Below are positions 1 to 5,687 of a stretch of 5,687 bases of DNA, one piece after another. Source of the stretch: a virus (lineage: Duplodnaviria; Heunggongvirae; Uroviricota; Caudoviricetes). Under the pieces are notes generated by a model. It did not search any database, had not been told where the DNA came from, and saw only the letters and a list, made by a program, of their open reading frames with translations. The stretch's first letter is position 1. Each line of letters begins with the position of its first letter. The position numbers and the translations under genes were made by a program. The stretch lies in IMG/VR virus record IMGVR_UViG_2713896768_000015, one strand, 5' to 3'.

Positions 1-1
1 G

Positions 2-946
2 GCTTACAAAAACTTCTTCCGGAAGCGGGCTGCTTTTCCCCGATTCAAAAAGCGGGGACAGAATGATGCATTCCGCTACCCGCAGGGCGTTAAGCTCGAT
101 CAGGAAAACAGCCGTATTTTTCTGCCGAAACTGGGCTGGATGCGCTACCGGAATAGCCGTCAGGTCACGGGTGTTGTGAAAAATGTCACTGTCAGCCAGT
201 CCTGCGGTAAGTGGTACATCAGTATTCAGACAGAAAGTGAAGTATCCACTCCGGTTCACCCTTCAGCATCAATGGTCGGGCTGGATGCTGGCGTGGCTAA
301 ACTCGCCACGCTGTCAGATGGCACAGTCTTTGAGCCTGTAAACAGTTTTCAGAAAAACCAGAAGACGCTGGCGAGACTTCAGCGACAGTTAAGCCGCAAG
401 GTCAAATTCAGCAACAACTGGCAGAAGCAGAAACGCAAAATACAGCGACTGCATTCCCGTATCGCAAATATCCGCAGGGACTACCTTCATAAAGTCACAA
501 CGACCGTCAGCAAAAACCACGCAATGATAGTCATTGAGGATTTGAAGGTCAGCAACATGTCAAAGTCAGCAGCGGGTACGGTCAGCCAGCCGGGGCGCAA
601 TGTCCGGGCAAAATCAGGTTTAAACCGTTCGATACTGGATCAGGGCTGGTATGAAATGCGCCGCCAGCTTGAGTACAAGCAGCTCTGGCGTGGCGGTCAG
701 GTGCTTGCTGTTCCGCCAGCGTACACAAGCCAGCGTTGCGCGTGCTGTGGTCATACAGCGAAAGAAAACCGCCTGTCACAAAGTAAATTCGTGTGTCGGG
801 CTTGTGGATATACAGCGAACGCCGATGTAAACGGCGCTCGTAACATTTTAGCGGCGGGGCACGCCGTGCTTGCCTGTGGAGGGATGGTGCAGTCAGACCG
901 CCCGTTGAAGCAGGAACCCTCCGAAATGATTCAGGCGACAGCCTGA
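2..946 (+). CDS. tnpB: IS200/IS605-family TnpB (OrfB) transposon-associated RNA-guided nuclease, 5'-truncated by the window edge (C-terminal 314 aa visible)
   Basis: The open frame runs from position 2 with no stop until TGA at 944-946 (the ORF track starts at the first Met, 140). RuvC-like motifs are present: GLDAG (Asp at 284-286), IVIEDL (Glu at 536-538) and [11 protein letters not shown] (Asp at 824-826). A C-x2-C...C-x2-C zinc finger (QRCACCGH...FVCRACG) precedes the last RuvC motif. This is the typical TnpB C-terminal architecture. Confidence 0.9.
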
Positions 947-1030
947 ACATAGCAGGAATCCACACCCCGAAGAGCGTGGAGGATGTCACGCTGCCTCTTT
1001 AATGTTGGCGGCTATCCATGCCGCCGTGTG
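800..1030 (+). ncRNA. Candidate omega-RNA (right-end RNA) locus for TnpB; boundaries approximate
   Basis: Established knowledge: TnpB guide RNAs are transcribed from the 3' end of tnpB through the IS right end, with the guide taken from the flanking DNA. Nothing in the sequence lets me place the scaffold precisely; only the hairpins at 973-992 and 1007-1025 are seen. Confidence 0.25.
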
Positions 1031-1351
1031 CTGTTTAACCTGGTCCAGGTCGATGTATGTGCCAACATATTGACTCAAGTCCTGTAACGTACCGATAAAT
1101 GCATCAGTGCTCTGATCGACGAATTTATCAGCCAGGAAATCAGCAACCAGTTTTGGCACACCATCATGTACCGAAGGTTGTTTTTCCTCGCCACTACTGC
1201 CGCCGGACGCGCCGTACCCCATCTGTTGCATGATCTGGTCAATTTCATCGCTGATATCCAGCAACTCCATGCCACTCGCGGTAGCCGCTTTGGATATCAG
1301 AGCATCCAACTTATCGCTGAGATCCATTAACTCAATAGCTGATAGTGTCAT
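986..1351 (-). CDS. ddrA: Acidic 121-aa protein, last gene of the operon; positional equivalent of P1 DdrA (assignment by position only)
   Basis: The ATG at 1351-1349 overlaps the upstream gene's TGA (ATGA at 1348-1351), indicating translational coupling. The protein is Asp/Glu-rich with a Gly/Ser linker (GYGASGGSSGEE). The name rests on operon position and my recollection of P1, not on alignment. Confidence 0.55.
   Translation of the reverse strand: MTLSAIELMDLSDKLDALISKAATASGMELLDISDEIDQIMQQMGYGASGGSSGEEKQPSVHDGVPKLVADFLADKFVDQSTDAFIGTLQDLSQYVGTYIDLDQVKQHTAAWIAANIKEAA
1007..1025. other. Perfect 6-bp GC stem (GGCGGC / GCCGCC) with 7-nt loop
   Basis: Read directly: ggcggc (1007-1012), tatccat, gccgcc (1020-1025). 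It lies inside the last codons of the convergent 121-aa gene. Possible IS subterminal hairpin, omega-RNA element or transcript-end structure. No downstream U-run, so not a classic intrinsic terminator. Confidence 0.3.
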
Positions 1352-3267
1352 GCCGCTACCCCCGCTTTCTGGATTGCTACCAGCAGATCAGCCAGGTGGC
1401 GAGCAGCGCCATTAACCAGCTCTTCGTTTTCCTCAAAACGCCCGGCAGCCTGAAGGGCTGCAATCGCTTCCCGGACATTGCCCCGGGCGTTACGGATCTC
1501 CGCCATGTCAGTGCTTTGCATATCCATCACGTTATTGAGATATTCAATGGCTTTATTAGCCTCTGCATCTGCTTCGCTAACCGTTTCATCAGGCTGTGCC
1601 GGGGCCGGTTCTGGCTGAGTAATCTCACCGACTTCGGCCTGCAATGCATTGATCATGCTCTGCACCATTTTCTCGGTGCCAGCGCCCCCCGGAAACGCAA
1701 TATTGGGGAAAGTTTTTTGAAACTGAGTCTTCAGCATTACGCGGAACTCGTCTGGTGAGCTGGTGGCCAGCTCCAGAGCTTTTTGTGCATATTTGCCAAA
1801 CGGACCATTAGTAAGTGTCTTCGCCAGGAAGTCGAAAGAATCCTCGCGAGGCAATAACTTCAGGTCGTACTCACTCATTTGCTGATCAGAAAGCGGGGTA
1901 TCGTAAGTAGCAATGCCGTAGCGTGCATATTCATAATACGGGTCACCGTCATCAGGGCGCGGCAGAATTGCTTTGTTACCTTCAGGTATCGCGCCAGGGG
2001 CCGCCGGACGCATTTGCAGGGCATATCGATATGCACCTACAGAGACTTCTGGTTCAGGCGAAGAGCTACCGGTATCCTCCGCTGGTTCAGGTTCGACGTT
2101 TTCCGGTTTATGTTCTTCTGGTTGGACCAGATATTCCGATACATTACCCGCTTTATAGGCTTTAAACAGCTTGCCGAGCGCATCCGCCATGTCCACACCC
2201 TGTATGGATTTAGCCTTGATCATGTACACGCTGCCATCCGAATCGGTTAACTGGATATACCCTTCGCCGTCCCCAATGAATTGCTTCATTGATGCACCAT
2301 TACTGAGCGTCGCTTCCCCGTCCATATGCATACGATTTTTGATACTGGCAAGGCGATCCGTCAGCGCGCGAGAGTGTCCACCAGTCATCCCCGCTGGAGC
2401 AATGGTATCGCGCCCACCAGTGCGATTGAGCTGATCAATCTCCGTCTGCAAACGCTCATTCTCTTCATAAAGAGAATCCGCTTCCGATGCAACAGCGTTA
2501 ATTTTCTGCTCCAGATCTGCCTTCTGCCCTTCTACCGCTGCCACCTGATCCGCGAGGTCGCTCATGGCATCCTCTTTCTGGTCACTGTCAGCCTGTAGTT
2601 GGGTTATTTCATCAACAAGGGCTTTTTTCTTCTTCTGCGCACGCTGGAATTTTGCCGAGTTTTTCTCTGCAAGGTTGGCAAGTTTCATGGTGACCTGCGC
2701 CAGCGTCATATCACGTCCACTCATCGGAGCAACGGTGTGAGTAACGTCTTTTTTATTCAGTAAGAACTGGAAAGCAACCAGCGTATCGCTATTGGTGATC
2801 CGGTTTTCCGCTGTCGGGCTATGAAACAGAATGCTGATAGTCTGACCATCACTGAGCGGAATAATGGCTGGCAGGACTGGCAGCCCGTTAACGTTACGTG
2901 CCCGGCCAATTTCAGCGCCGCCGATCGCGCGCGCGCCGCTCTGGGCCACATCCCCCGTTTTATCACTCCCCGCAGATATTCCGGTACCATTCAGCTTCTG
3001 GTTCAATGCCCGGACAAATGCCTGCATGGTCCGGTGTAACTGCAAACGAGTAGAACTAATCGCCTCCAGTAAATCCGTAGCACACCAGTGGATCGGCGTG
3101 TCATAGAAGAACGTAGCCTCGATTTCTTCCAGGGTGTTGGATTCCGTCATCAGATAGCGGTCCTCACCGGCCATTAATGCGCGATATTCATCATCAGTCA
3201 CCGGCGGGGGAAGCACGTCAAGCCCCGGCTTAATCGTCACCCCTTTATTGATATTGAACTGTTCCAT
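1348..3267 (-). CDS. darA: DarA-like capsid antirestriction (defence against restriction) protein, 639 aa
   Basis: Start ATG at 3267 with AGGAA 6 nt upstream, 1 nt after the upstream gene's stop. The N-terminal ~210 aa share a domain with the preceding 200-aa protein (LxDGQxIxI ... KNSAKFQ). A coiled-coil-like charged segment (~aa 205-285) and two acidic Pro/Glu-rich linkers follow. Size and context match P1 DarA as I recall it. Confidence 0.8.
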   Translation of the reverse strand: MEQFNINKGVTIKPGLDVLPPPVTDDEYRALMAGEDRYLMTESNTLEEIEATFFYDTPIHWCATDLLEAISSTRLQLHRTMQAFVRALNQKLNGTGISAGSDKTGDVAQSGARAIGGAEIGRARNVNGLPVLPAIIPLSDGQTISILFHSPTAENRITNSDTLVAFQFLLNKKDVTHTVAPMSGRDMTLAQVTMKLANLAEKNSAKFQRAQKKKKALVDEITQLQADSDQKEDAMSDLADQVAAVEGQKADLEQKINAVASEADSLYEENERLQTEIDQLNRTGGRDTIAPAGMTGGHSRALTDRLASIKNRMHMDGEATLSNGASMKQFIGDGEGYIQLTDSDGSVYMIKAKSIQGVDMADALGKLFKAYKAGNVSEYLVQPEEHKPENVEPEPAEDTGSSSPEPEVSVGAYRYALQMRPAAPGAIPEGNKAILPRPDDGDPYYEYARYGIATYDTPLSDQQMSEYDLKLLPREDSFDFLAKTLTNGPFGKYAQKALELATSSPDEFRVMLKTQFQKTFPNIAFPGGAGTEKMVQSMINALQAEVGEITQPEPAPAQPDETVSEADAEANKAIEYLNNVMDMQSTDMAEIRNARGNVREAIAALQAAGRFEENEELVNGAARHLADLLVAIQKAGVAA

Positions 3268-3268
3268 G

Positions 3269-3871
3269 TTAATTTCCTGCTTTCAGTTGCTTAAGACGGC
3301 GTTTGAGTTCGCCATTTCGGGCCTTTTCGTTATTGAGTCGGCCTGTCTCCTTATCCAGCTTCGCCCGCAAATCAGTGATCTGCTGTTGATTGAAAGACAC
3401 CGAGTTCTGAGCTGATTTATAAGCGGCAACCACCTGAGCATTCCGCTGTTTTGCCTCTTGCAGGCGCTGAAAGTTGGATTTTACTGCCGGTTTCTTGTCT
3501 ACCGGATTGGCAACACGTTTCGCTTTGGCGATCAGTGATTTCTGGAATTTTGCGGAGTTTTTGCGGGCCGCTTGCCCCATGACGGTACCAAGCGTCTTGA
3601 TATCCGGCGACTGAGCGTTAGGAATAGCTTTTCCATTCAGCCTCACAGACGATATATCGCCAGTATCGTTTACCTGTATGGCAAGAATTTGTCCGTCGTT
3701 AAGAACCAGCTTTGCGGTTTTAACTTTAACGCCATCTTTCGTTGTTGCGCGGTTGCTGGAGTCAACCTCAATTACCGTAACACCGGTTTTATTGATCGTC
3801 GCGATAAGGGATTTCAGCCCCCTTTCATTAACCTGGTCAAAATCGACCGTTGCATACTTATTTTTCGTCAT
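3269..3871 (-). CDS. hdf: Hdf-like protein (homologue of the DarA N-terminal fragment), ~200 aa
   Basis: It shares the motif block with the N-terminal region of the 639-aa protein, including a 21-nt stretch identical at 20 positions (3542-3562 versus 2644-2664, encoding KNSAKFQ). The likely start is the second ATG (3871-3869), which has AGGA 8 nt upstream. The ORF-track start at 3880 has no usable spacing. The C-terminal half is basic and coiled-coil-like. Confidence 0.75.
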   Translation of the reverse strand: MTKNKYATVDFDQVNERGLKSLIATINKTGVTVIEVDSSNRATTKDGVKVKTAKLVLNDGQILAIQVNDTGDISSVRLNGKAIPNAQSPDIKTLGTVMGQAARKNSAKFQKSLIAKAKRVANPVDKKPAVKSNFQRLQEAKQRNAQVVAAYKSAQNSVSFNQQQITDLRAKLDKETGRLNNEKARNGELKRRLKQLKAGN

Positions 3872-4301
3872 CTGACACATCCTGTGCGAGATTTATTACG
3901 TAACTTCTGCGGATTTGCTGAGTAACAGGGAAAATCCGATACAACGGGTTAATGAACGAGTCGCCATGCGTAACCATGACGTTGAAATGCCACAGTCGTT
4001 CTCCTTTACCCATATATTCAGTGGGTATGTACAACCATTCACTGTTTTCGCCCTGTTCAGCCGACGTCAGACAACGTTGTTCGCCTTCAATCACTGTCGT
4101 TGGCTTCTGAACATCGCGGATCCAATATCTGACCGTTGCGCCGCGCAAAAACGGGAATTTAGACCGGTATTTGAACGGCACCCGGATGAAGCCCTGTTTA
4201 ATTTCCACATCACCAAGTTCTAAATGCGTGATGTCCTTGCGTTTTAGCAAATAGCGATCGGCTAAGGCTAACGCAAGAGCGCATACACCCCAGCCAATCA
4301 T
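3858..4301 (-). CDS. lydB: LydB-like protein (holin antagonist in P1), 147 aa
   Basis: The ATG at 4301-4299 overlaps the upstream holin gene's TGA (ATGA at 4298-4301), with GGGAGG 6 nt upstream. Hydrophobic N-terminus (MIGWGVCALALALA). Size and position match P1 lydB as I recall it. Confidence 0.7.
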   Translation of the reverse strand: MIGWGVCALALALADRYLLKRKDITHLELGDVEIKQGFIRVPFKYRSKFPFLRGATVRYWIRDVQKPTTVIEGEQRCLTSAEQGENSEWLYIPTEYMGKGERLWHFNVMVTHGDSFINPLYRIFPVTQQIRRSYVINLAQDVSDDEK

Positions 4302-4627
4302 TTCCCACCTCCCTTTTTCACCAAACTTGTAAGAACATTCAGAATGCTATCGATATTCACTCGTTTCATCCCTGAAATCACCTCATGACCGTTATTGCTG
4401 GCTATCGTTACCATTAAGTACGTAATTGATAACTCCCAGCCTTCGTGTTGCCCCAATAGGTACGCCACCGCGCCAGCTGTCACTGCAACAAAGATCTCCG
4501 TAACCAATCCCAACAAATTGCCAGACTGGCGACCGTCTCGGACATCCATCAGGAACGTGCCTATCCCACCAATTACTGAAAGCAGGAGCGCAATAGCAAC
4601 TGGAGCTAATTCCTGTGTGTCAAGCAC
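4298..4627 (-). CDS. lydA: LydA-like holin, 109 aa, three predicted transmembrane segments and a charged C-terminus
   Basis: GTG start at 4627-4625 with AGGAGG 6 nt upstream. Hydrophobic stretches LAPVAIALLLSVIGGIGTFL, LLGLVTEIFVAVTAGAVAYLL and LSITYLMVTIA, ending in KKGGGK. First gene of the coupled operon. Confidence 0.75.
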   Translation of the reverse strand: MLDTQELAPVAIALLLSVIGGIGTFLMDVRDGRQSGNLLGLVTEIFVAVTAGAVAYLLGQHEGWELSITYLMVTIASNNGHEVISGMKRVNIDSILNVLTSLVKKGGGK

Positions 4628-4633
4628 AAGTTC

Positions 4634-4653
4634 CCTCCTACGTTGTCAGGAGG
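4634..4653 (-). promoter_or_regulatory. Hairpin pairing the lydA Shine-Dalgarno (AGGAGG) with an upstream CCUCCU anti-SD
   Basis: On the minus-strand transcript: CCUCCU (4653-4648), 8-nt loop, AGGAGG (4639-4634), then a 6-nt spacer and GUG. The six base pairs are four G-C and two A-U. Confidence 0.35.
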
Positions 4654-4694
4654 TAATGGTATGCAAAGTAACTTCTCAACCGGTCATTTGTTGC

Positions 4695-4934
4695 TTAAGA
4701 GGCATTTCTATTGAGGTACGAATCGATAAGCCTTTGTAACCTTTCAAAAATGAGCCTGTTATTGATGCTGCAAATAAGAGTCACGCAATTCTGAAGACTT
4801 TCATCCATACCCTTATATTCCGCGAAATACATGCCTATAAAGCCTGCAAGTACGGCAGCAATACACTCGGCCATCAATTGCCTGCATGACGCTTCGTAAC
4901 GTTTTTCACGAACCCCATTCAGAAACGAATGCAC
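4695..4934 (-). CDS. Hypothetical small protein (79 aa; possibly 59 aa from an internal Met at 4874) with one hydrophobic helix
   Basis: ORF in an AT-rich spacer between the invertase and the holin gene. The GTG start has GGAGG only 1 nt upstream, which is poor spacing. The internal ATG at 4874-4872 has a weak AGG 6 nt upstream. Coding status is uncertain. Confidence 0.3.
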   Translation of the reverse strand: MHSFLNGVREKRYEASCRQLMAECIAAVLAGFIGMYFAEYKGMDESLQNCVTLICSINNRLIFERLQRLIDSYLNRNAS

Positions 4935-4958
4935 GCCTCCAAGGATGGTTATAAAAAA

Positions 4959-4984
4959 TATGGTTAAATCAAGGTTTAGGATTG
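4959..4984. other. Candidate invertase crossover site (cix/gix/hix-like 12-2-12 element) overlapping the invertase stop codon
   Basis: TATGGTTAAATC-AA-GGTTTAGGATTG. The right half matches the Din-family half-site pattern (reverse complement CAATCCTAAACC; compare hix TTATCAAAAACC and gix TTATCCAAAACC). The left half is weaker (TAAATC inner core). Confidence 0.4.
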
Positions 4985-5536
4985 AAATGATGACGCCGGA
5001 AACTTCTTATAAAGCGTGGAAACAGCCACATCATAGATGATTGCAACCTGCTTACGGGGGATGCCCTTCTCGAGCAATCGCCGCATTTGCTGCCATGTTT
5101 CTTCTTGGTATTTAGGCCGACGCCCACCTATACGACCTTCTGCGCGAGCTGCATCAAGTCCAGCGCGTGTACGTTCAACGATAAGCTCACGTTCCATTTC
5201 TGCCAGCGCCCCCATTACGTGAAAGAAAAAACGCCCCATTGGTGTACTGGTGTCGATGGAGTCAGTGAGACTCCGGAAGTTAATGCCTCTGTCACGCAGC
5301 TCTTCCACCAGCACAACTAAGTGACGCATGCTGCGCCCAAGACGATCTAACTTCCATACGACTAGGGTGTCACCTCTGGAAAGCATACGGAGAACCTTTT
5401 TTAACCCAGGGCGTTCAGCCTTTTTGCCGCTCGCCTTGTCCTCAAAAATTAGCTCACATCCTGCGCTTTCAAGGGCATTTCGTTGTAAAGCAGTGTTTTG
5501 TTCATTTGTTGATACGCGTACATAGCCAATTAGCAT
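4976..5536 (-). CDS. cin: Serine DNA invertase of the Gin/Cin/Hin/Pin (Din) family, 186 aa
   Basis: N-terminal MLIGYVRVSTNEQ with the catalytic Ser at residue 9, a resolvase/invertase catalytic domain (VWKLDRLGRS, MGRFFFHVMGALAEMERELI) and a C-terminal helix-turn-helix (GIPRKQVAIIYDVAVSTLYKKF). GGTGA lies 8 nt upstream of the ATG. The symbol cin is chosen from the P1-like context; family membership is near certain, the specific orthologue is not. Confidence 0.92.
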   Translation of the reverse strand: MLIGYVRVSTNEQNTALQRNALESAGCELIFEDKASGKKAERPGLKKVLRMLSRGDTLVVWKLDRLGRSMRHLVVLVEELRDRGINFRSLTDSIDTSTPMGRFFFHVMGALAEMERELIVERTRAGLDAARAEGRIGGRRPKYQEETWQQMRRLLEKGIPRKQVAIIYDVAVSTLYKKFPASSFQS

Positions 5537-5655
5537 ATTTTCTGCTCACCATAGTTATTCATAGCAAGCTGCGGATTTTAATTAACAGAAACCAGTGTGT
5601 GTGGAAATCACAAAGTGCATACCGTGCCCCAATGATGTTTTATTGAAAAGCGGGG

Positions 5656-5681
5656 TTACTTTAATGTTTGGTTTAAGAGAA
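5656..5681. other. Candidate crossover site upstream of the invertase gene (cixL-like), at the window edge
   Basis: TTACTTTAATGT-TT-GGTTTAAGAGAA. The distal half (reverse complement TTCTCTTAAACC) is a strong Din-family half-site; the invertase-proximal half is degenerate. It sits about 120-145 bp upstream of the invertase ATG, where gix/cix sites overlap invertase promoters. Confidence 0.4.
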
Positions 5682-5687
5682 CTTGGC

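Follow-up and report, generated by a model that had tools for sequence, protein, structure and literature searches.

The closest described counterparts of the proteins studied here are Hdf and DarA of phage P1, for which structures of the head are available (PDB 9UKM and 9VZ0, chains H and I; Zheng et al., PLoS Pathog 2026, PMC12810830). A total of 55 DarA-Hdf heterodimers have been placed at the penton-hexon junctions of the inner capsid surface, where the C-terminal helix of Hdf, modelled as an alpha-helix domain, pairs with the helix of DarA; the DarA model covers residues 70–382, and the N-domain of Hdf is unresolved in the cryo-EM map (PMC12810830). The contacts with the capsid are made by the alpha-helix domains (Hdf 135–203) and by the DarA loops 102–116, 321–326, and 342–346 (PMC12810830). 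The pair is reported to contact DNA, to favour the large T=13 head, to recruit the other Dar proteins, and to protect the injected DNA from type I restriction. As an analogy, the same paper cites the SaPI1 proteins CpmA and CpmB of phage 80alpha, 2 small proteins inside the head whose effect on the scaffolding network changes the T number of the capsid. CpmA and CpmB have no sequence or fold relation to DarA and Hdf, and they shrink heads and leave after maturation. DarA and Hdf, by contrast, promote the larger head and remain within the virion, from which they are injected. The paralogy of Hdf and DarA is already known from Pfam PF18788, Iyer et al. 2017, and the P1 head structure (PDB 9UKM, 2025–26). 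The paper of Iyer, Burroughs, Anand, de Souza, and Aravind (2017, PMC5512222) defines the DarA-N domain, now PF18788, from DarA and Hdf. Both proteins contain the Asp (DGQ) and Asn-x-basic motifs that are conserved in this domain, and Hdf is a reduced version of it.

We analysed a stretch of 5,687 nucleotides from IMG/VR virus record IMGVR_UViG_2713896768_000015, hereafter the window, which covers the late darA operon of a P1-like phage with the minus-strand gene order lydC-lydA-lydB-hdf-darA-ddrA (Table 1). Its nucleotide identity to SJ46, RCS47, P1, and P7, in which Hdf and DarA are annotated, was 97–98.8%. P1 records matched positions 990–4948 at 98.1–98.6%, with the same genes annotated and the synteny lydA-lydB-hdf-darA-ddrA preserved. 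We take the gene name hdf to stand for 'homolog of DarA fragment'. Starting at the second ATG of hdf (3871), translation yields a protein of 200 aa, the form annotated in SJ46, and on inspection of the sequence the Shine-Dalgarno spacing of this ATG is better than that of the first (3880). All 203 residues of the longer form matched chain H of PDB 9UKM (E = 7e-121) and Hdf also matched PHROG 1620 (Hdf-like antirestriction, E = 3e-79); a DdrA-like PHROG was found in the window as well. DarA matched chain I over its full length (1387 bits) and scored 1091 bits against the NCBIfam equivalog anti_RE_DarA (cut-off 350). By these matches, the 2 proteins are Hdf and DarA, which are known from P1-like phages as anti-restriction proteins inside the head. 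They are the same genes as in P1, full-length and with few substitutions (Hdf carries N61 in the window and S61 in P1), and P1 has the same KNSAKFQ peptide with the same codons in both copies. The window differs from P1 in an IS200/IS605-family element beyond ddrA, as in SJ46 and RCS47, and in the invertase junction beyond lydC. From this near identity, head packaging, head-size control, and protection from type I restriction are assumed to hold for the proteins of the window.

Table 1. Positions of the hdf and darA features in the window.
Feature	Coordinates	Strand	Remarks
hdf CDS	3269..3880	-	203 aa from ATG 3880; ORF list; annotated as Hdf in P1 and relatives
DarA_N of Hdf, aa 13–113	3542..3844	-	alpha+beta; last helix (aa 94–124) bears KNSAKFQ; Pfam, AlphaFold2, Foldseek
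DGQ of Hdf (D62 G63 Q64)	3689..3697	-	codons GAC GGA CAA; invariant in the Hdf alignment
N-x-basic motif of Hdf (N82 G83 K84)	3629..3637	-	N82 and G83 invariant in Hdf orthologues; aligned to DarA N171–K173
KNSAKFQ codons of Hdf, aa 107–113	3542..3562	-	AAA AAC TCC GCA AAA TTC CAG
Hdf C-terminal long helix, aa 135–203	3272..3478	-	AlphaFold2 helix 136–200; aligned with DarA 219–283 by hhalign
darA CDS	1348..3267	-	639 aa; ORF list; Pfam DarA_N and DarA_C
DarA_N of DarA, aa 66–208	2644..3072	-	Pfam PF18788; 'hexon binding domain' of the cryo-EM paper
DGQ of DarA (D140 G141 Q142)	2842..2850	-	codons GAT GGT CAG; in 99–100% of 153 representatives
N-x-basic motif of DarA (N171 K172 K173)	2749..2757	-	N171 in 100% of 153 representatives
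KNSAKFQ codons of DarA, aa 202–208	2644..2664	-	AAA AAC TCG GCA AAA TTC CAG; family consensus E[KR]NSaKFq
DarA alpha-helix domain, aa 209–283	2419..2643	-	colinear with the Hdf helix; hhalign; structure paper

The Pfam DarA_N profile (gathering threshold 27 bits) was exceeded by both proteins, with 75.7 bits (E = 3.5e-21, aa 13–109) for Hdf and 143.4 bits (E = 3.8e-42, aa 66–204) for DarA. The original prediction had aligned residues ~58–113 of the small protein with ~136–208 of the large one and had proposed a pairwise alignment together with structure prediction; the alignment was run, and structures were predicted for Hdf. The segments that it quoted, LVLNDGQILAIQ (Hdf 58–69) and IPLSDGQTISIL (DarA 136–147), are correct in the numbering of the 203-aa Hdf. 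BLASTP aligned Hdf 29–115 with DarA 107–210 at 29% identity (E = 9e-4), and profile-profile comparison with hhalign extended the homology to Hdf 44–202 and DarA 122–283 (probability 98.1%, E = 6.9e-14). AlphaFold2 models of Hdf (mean pLDDT 82–84, with 82 for the N-domain) contained a helix at 23–30 or 23–31, 5 strands within 36–81, and a helix at 94–124. Searched against the PDB with Foldseek, the N-domain model matched 9ukm_I (E = 6.6e-5, TM 0.55 over 143 columns) and also 9vz0_I; these 2 DarA chains were the only PDB matches of the Hdf models at E < 1e-3, and they were likewise the top 2 matches of the full-length model. By these models, the alpha+beta fold of DarA_N is common to both proteins, and Hdf corresponds to this domain together with the long helix that comes after it in DarA, where coiled-coil-type Pfam noise matches cover aa 190–283. 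A resemblance confined to low-complexity Lys/Ala-rich sequence, named at the outset as what would undo the claim, is contradicted by Pfam, hhalign, and Foldseek alike. Altogether, Hdf and DarA are ancient paralogues, and the old duplication of a common domain proposed from the sequence is borne out.

Hdf is a divergent and reduced member of the family, because near-invariant DarA_N positions are substituted in it or fall within 2 deletions. When the hhalign alignment was read against the conservation table, Hdf was found to have lost an 11-residue and a 6-residue segment of the domain, and the near-invariant residues F148/H149/P151 (FHSP), D161, D174, T176, V179, and G184, all present in DarA, are lost in Hdf. 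Recognisable identity between the 2 proteins is left only at the signature residues of DarA_N, which are DGQ, N-x-K/R, and, as a turn of the last helix, N-S-x-K-F. D62/D140 and the N-x-basic sites probably correspond to the conserved Asp and NX+ motif of Iyer et al. (PMC5512222); position 173 of DarA, a Lys here, is R in 82% of the 153 family representatives. The available text of the same paper does not single out the N-S-x-K-F signature at the end of DarA_N.

The DarA domain was matched by 870 representative clusters at E ≤ 0.001, many of them within very large multidomain proteins of 900–1800 aa, and 3 representatives carry 2 DarA_N domains in one chain. Among 153 aligned representatives, N203 and F207 are conserved in 99%, S204 in 84%, and K206 in 76%, and a K or R occupies position 202 in 92%, which gives the consensus E-[KR]-N-S-a-K-F-q. 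These column counts exclude Hdf, whose position was taken from hhalign, because the HMM built from DarA aligned Hdf over aa 26–72 only. Both Hdf and DarA carry [KR]-N-S-x-K-F, a signature whose conservation in DarA equals that of the DGQ and N-x-R motifs. Purifying selection on the core of the motif is therefore supported by its conservation across the family. The strong constraint that had been claimed for the whole motif was nevertheless overstated: Hdf orthologues read NNSVKFR, RNTAKFS, SNSLKFQ, or DNSKRFT, so that only N..KF is retained, and in a 36%-identical Hdf the motif has become TGATAFE, with N and K lost in that lineage. A further 47%-identical 'Hdf' (P0044) was excluded as a frameshift-ridden plasmid assembly with fragmented genes. 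Hdf keeps only signature islands of DarA_N, which one lineage has begun to lose. Hdf of the P1 clade equals DarA at each of the 4 positions (K, S, A, and Q) where Hdf orthologues differ from one another, and this agreement reflects either a retained ancestral consensus or coincidence.

At the nucleotide level, the 21-mers CTGGAATTTTGCCGAGTTTTT (2644–2664) and CTGGAATTTTGCGGAGTTTTT (3542–3562) are identical at 20 of 21 bases, exactly as originally reported. None of 200 dinucleotide-preserving shuffles yielded such a pair, and a repeat search recovered the same one (family D2). Read on the minus strand, both 21-mers give AAA AAC TCS GCA AAA TTC CAG, that is KNSAKFQ, and the boundaries of the match are exactly those of these 7 codons. 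The divergence of the flanking sequence described in the original prediction was also confirmed: neighbouring codons have 0–2 of 3 bases in common, and those directly adjoining the motif on either side have none. Aligned codons of Hdf and DarA are 37% identical in nucleotides, synonymous sites between the 2 genes are saturated, and the DGQ codons differ at the third base in all 3 cases. On the plus strand, antisense ORFs run over both 21-mers (2564–2740, 2599–2763, 3451–3582, and 3474–3614); we regard these as mechanical ORFs within well-supported genes.

Since this stretch of Hdf and DarA belongs to a catalogued domain, the 21-base match amounts to 7 conserved codons and is an ordinary finding. 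The 20/21 match reflects 7 identical residues, most of which (Lys as AAA, Asn, Phe, and Gln) allow only one- or two-codon choices, and modest luck in codon choice, confined to the P1 clade, comes on top. The same codon is used at 12 of 29 identical residues outside the motif and at 6 of 7 within it, and for this reason a small codon excess stays unexplained under a purely neutral reading. The excess is marginal (p about 0.017–0.044): at least 6 of 7 matching codons are expected with a probability of 0.032 from the codon usage of the operon, 20/21 was reached in 1.7% of synonymous shuffles, and a Fisher test of motif versus elsewhere gave p = 0.044, all of these being post hoc values for a feature that was chosen by eye. 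We put at roughly 85% the probability of the whole explanation, in which the window carries a P1-like darA operon, Hdf and DarA are ancient paralogues, and KNSAKFQ is the N-S-x-K-F signature of DarA_N in its consensus form, with modest codon luck added.

In the predicted, amphipathic helix, N and F of the motif lie on one i/i+4 face and belong, in Hdf, to the stripe L97, M101, A104/105, N108, F112, L116, and A120. From this periodicity and the conservation of both residues, N and F most likely hold the helix against the beta-sheet and set its junction with the coiled-coil helix, and the lysines flanking them would face solvent or DNA. A different role, which we consider unlikely, is that DarA_N domains always work in pairs, their functional or pairing surface being formed by the N-S-x-K-F helix and the DGQ/N-x-K/Asp cluster; the second copy would be supplied in trans in P1, by the partly degenerate Hdf, and in cis in some large phage proteins, such as the 3 representatives with 2 DarA_N domains. 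As an addition to this obligatory pairing, there is a small possibility that the codon identity of the P1 clade is a record of micro-conversion that keeps the paired halves matched.

The motif had also been put forward as a candidate capsid-targeting or interaction determinant. A docking peptide of this kind, common to Hdf and DarA and directed to the capsid or to a partner, would fit with the early, mutually dependent packaging of the 2 proteins, and with the description of the N-terminal and helical domains of the pair, which 'together form a complex' facing DNA and at whose junction the motif sits with its 2 lysines. The published capsid contacts fall elsewhere, however, in the alpha-helix domains and in the 3 DarA loops named above, and K, A, and Q vary freely among the Hdf orthologues, one lineage of which has done without N and K altogether. 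Moreover, the motif is kept in the DarA_N of hundreds of unrelated phage proteins across the 870 clusters and is therefore a feature of the domain, not of the P1 capsid. The proposed determinant is thus improbable.

Local gene conversion was the other explanation offered originally. In this scenario, a stretch of ~21 bases copied from darA replaced its homologous counterpart in hdf in the P1 lineage, which would account at once for a perfect heptapeptide, its near-identical codons, and the codon excess given above. Consistent with it, P1 Hdf departs from other Hdf orthologues exactly where it equals DarA, and by hand count P1 hdf is nearer to the darA of JK004 (16/21) than to the hdf of JK004 (14/21). 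However, KNSAKFQ is the family consensus, so that retention would explain the peptide, and the p-values that favour conversion are post hoc. The tract would also measure at most about 21–23 bases and, with 0/3 bases common in the codon on each side, would have no anchor for strand invasion. RecA-type exchange usually requires longer homology than a tract of this size offers. We then compared the paralogous copies in 87 loci, plus the window, in which both motifs were readable. Outside the P1 clade, the copies matched at 13/21 (JK004), 10/21 (L005), and 11/21 bases (L008). In all 84 scoreable loci of the P1 clade the synonymous TCC/TCG difference was kept, and a 21/21 match was never seen. SNPs in single copies (darA TTC>TTT in 5 loci, hdf CAG>CAA in 3, and hdf GCA>GCG in 1) were never mirrored in the other copy. 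Because the flanking codons are unrelated and the SNPs are never mirrored, gene conversion is not supported; flanks, shuffles, and codon and paralogue comparisons leave only a marginal excess, and we reject conversion as the main explanation, considering it very doubtful. Least probable is a nucleotide-level element present twice (a protein-binding site, RNA motif, or regulatory signal under non-coding conservation), which the above-chance occurrence of the exact 21-mer pair could suggest but which we rejected: the match coincides codon by codon with 7 identical residues, the copies are only 10–13/21 alike in other lineages, an Rfam scan of the window gave no match, and darA of P1 and JK004 differ here at 6 of 21 bases (~71% identity by hand count), equal to the 71.4% over the whole match.

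As a discovery, the relation between Hdf and DarA carries little weight, being a curated Pfam family described in 2017. What is of use here is descriptive. KNSAKFQ represents, in its consensus form, the near-invariant N-S-x-K-F signature that closes DarA_N, and it points to N203 and F207 of DarA and N108 and F112 of Hdf as residues with which this biochemically obscure domain may be probed.

P1-like phages matched the 5687-base window at 97% to 98.8% nucleotide identity; SJ46 and RCS47 covered more than 80% of it, and P1, P7, and phi456 covered it from 990 to approximately 4948. Gene names were transferred from the P1 and SJ46 annotations and combined with an ORF list.

Genes of the window, each placed by annotation transfer and the ORF list
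Gene	Position	Strand
DNA invertase gene	4976-5536	minus
lydC-like ORF	4695-4934	minus
lydA	4298-4627	minus
lydB	3858-4301	minus
hdf	3269-3880	minus
darA	1348-3267	minus
ddrA	986-1351	minus
IS200/IS605-family tnpB/insQ gene, 3' part	140-946	plus

The 639-aa protein is DarA (NCBIfam equivalog anti_RE_DarA, 1091 bits; full-length alignment with PDB 9UKM chain I) and the 200-aa protein is Hdf (PHROG 1620, E 3e-79; PDB 9UKM chain H, E 7e-121). The hdf start is ambiguous (3858-3895, minus strand). P1 and PDB 9UKM use the 203-aa form, which starts at the first ATG (3880). The 200-aa form, annotated in SJ46 and matching the length of most Hdf orthologues in the database, starts at the ATG at 3871, which is preceded by AGGA at a spacing of 8 bases. 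Both ATGs lie inside the final part of lydB, whose stop is at 3858. Four-base overlaps join lydA to lydB (4298-4301) and darA to ddrA (1348-1351, ATGA), and a single base separates the hdf stop from the darA start (3267-3269), a tight spacing that fits translational coupling between hdf and darA. At one end of the window, the 3' part of tnpB/insQ (1-946, plus strand) adjoins ddrA. This IS200/IS605-family insertion is shared with SJ46, RCS47, and vB_EcoM-813R1 and absent from P1, P7, and phi456, whose similarity begins at 990; a 96.8% identical element occurs in Morganella phage IME1369_01 and the filamentous phage If1. At the other end (approximately 4940-5687) there is a mosaic junction, where similarity to P1 and SJ46 stops at 4948-4971 and a phage D6-like invertase gene (96%) follows on the same strand as darA, whereas P1 cin lies on the strand opposite darA. 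The lydC-like ORF therefore begins differently at its 5' end, with a GTG start and 79 aa, versus a 282-base gene in P1. This invertase/lydC arrangement is common among E. coli P1-like plasmids.

Hdf and DarA are true homologues with a shared fold. BLASTP aligned Hdf 29-115 with DarA 107-210 (29% identity, E 9e-4), and the Pfam DarA_N domain (PF18788) was detected far over threshold in both, spanning residues 13-109 of Hdf (E 3.5e-21) and 66-204 of DarA (E 3.8e-42). When a 22-orthologue Hdf profile was compared by hhalign with a profile of 142 DarA-type domains, Hdf 44-202 aligned with DarA 122-283 (probability 98.1%, E 6.9e-14), showing that the paralogy extends beyond residues 58-113 to the whole of Hdf, including its long C-terminal helix. 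The AlphaFold2 models of Hdf (pLDDT 84 for the full length, 82 for the N-domain) contain a helix at 23-30, strands between 36 and 81, and helices at 94-124 and 136-200. In a PDB search with these models, the only hits below E 1e-3 were the experimental DarA chains 9ukm_I and 9vz0_I, the N-domain model matching DarA with E 6.6e-5, probability 1.00, and TM 0.55 over 143 columns. The Pfam, hhalign, and fold matches speak against a low-complexity similarity lacking a common fold, and with them the old duplication put forward in the original prediction proved right.

The 21-mers at 2644-2664 and 3542-3562 were indeed identical at 20 of 21 bases, with no comparable pair in 200 shuffles, and the DGQ-containing segments quoted for both proteins were also correct. 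On the minus (coding) strand both 21-mers read AAA AAC TCS GCA AAA TTC CAG, encoding KNSAKFQ (Hdf 107-113 and DarA 202-208), and the match ends exactly at these seven codons (CGC versus GAG before, AAA versus CGT after). Outside the motif, the aligned codons were 37% identical at nucleotide level, only 12 of 29 identical residues used the same codon, and the DGQ codons differed at all 3 third bases, so that synonymous sites are saturated. Inside it, 6 of 7 codons agreed. The probability of at least 6 of 7 was 0.032 under operon codon usage, when both genes were shuffled synonymously 20/21 was reached anywhere in 1.7% of cases, and Fisher's test against the remaining alignment gave p 0.044; for a feature picked by eye, these values are marginal. 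The two 21-mers matched at only 13, 10, and 11 of 21 bases in the diverged lineages JK004, L005, and L008, respectively. Among the 84 P1-clade loci in which both motifs were readable, 12 carried a SNP in one copy that was not mirrored in the other, and the TCC/TCG difference was never erased. There is also no flanking homology from which a conversion tract could start. Local gene conversion, proposed to explain the match, is therefore unsupported and very improbable.

DarA 60-215, used as the query against 1.84 billion representative proteins, returned 870 clusters at E <= 0.001. Over 153 aligned domains the motif columns gave the consensus E-[KR]-N-S-a-K-F-q, with K or R at 202 (92%), N203 (99%), S204 (84%), most often A at 205 (37%), K206 (76%), F207 (99%), and most often Q at 208 (48%), so that the DarA heptapeptide is the family consensus. 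N203 and F207 rank among the most conserved family positions, alongside D140, G141, Q142, P151, D161, N171, and D174. Comparison of the hhalign alignment with the family conservation table showed that Hdf retains DGQ, L-N-x-K, one Pro, and N..F, and lacks FHSP, D161, D174, T176, V179, and G184, with two deletions. The islands of similarity are thus family signatures surviving in a reduced paralogue.

The strong constraint claimed for the motif held for its core only. In Hdf orthologues with identities as low as 44%, N108 and F112 were the only invariant motif positions, and position 111 was K in all except one, which had R. The variants NNSVKFR, NNAVKFR, NNSQKFI, SNSLKFQ, RNTAKFS/T, and DNSKRFT show that K107, A110, and Q113 are unconstrained in Hdf; perfect heptapeptide identity is peculiar to the P1 clade. 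On a Rosenbergiella metrosideri contig (L009, 2983-6220), a 36% identical Hdf has TGATAFE, losing the motif N and K, and DEQ in place of DGQ, and the adjacent 873-aa DarA retains KNSGKFK, DGQ, and LINKRD; the two paralogues have decayed unequally there. P0044, the 'Hdf' of E. coli plasmid CP029117.1 (L004), was unfit for alignments: the lydB-hdf-darA region of this P1-like plasmid assembly consists of many short frameshifted ORFs, apparently through poor sequencing quality and not for a biological reason.

In both AlphaFold2 models KNSAKFQ lies mid-helix in the last DarA_N helix (Hdf 94-124), where the 3-4 spacing of the conserved or hydrophobic L97, M101, A104/105, N108, F112, L116, and A120 defines one face. 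The motif N and F would anchor this helix on the beta-sheet and set its junction with the coiled-coil helix, and K107 and K111 would occupy an adjacent exposed face, called basic and DNA-facing in the cryo-EM work. A capsid-targeting role for the motif is without support because the reported capsid contacts lie elsewhere, in residues 135-203 of Hdf and, in DarA, in the helix and the loops 102-116, 321-326, and 342-346 (PMC12810830).

The Hdf-DarA relationship was already known from Iyer et al. (PMC5512222), from UniRef, where 'defense against restriction DarA-related protein' is the name given to Hdf orthologues, and from cryo-EM; our analysis confirms the observation, but its interest is accordingly low. 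The 2026 cryo-EM study places 55 DarA-Hdf pairs at penton-hexon junctions on the inner capsid surface, their long helices forming a parallel, capsid-bound bundle and their N-terminal domains a positively charged, DNA-facing complex (PMC12810830), and a bioRxiv study agrees. As cited in PMC12810830, deleting either gene yields virions without any Dar proteins and lowers normal-size heads from ~80% to ~15%. Three large proteins of 1042-1708 aa (P0086, P0087, and P0108) carry two DarA_N domains per chain, at 64-203 and 741-861 in P0086. This hints that DarA_N may often act in pairs, the P1 equivalent being the separate Hdf and DarA.
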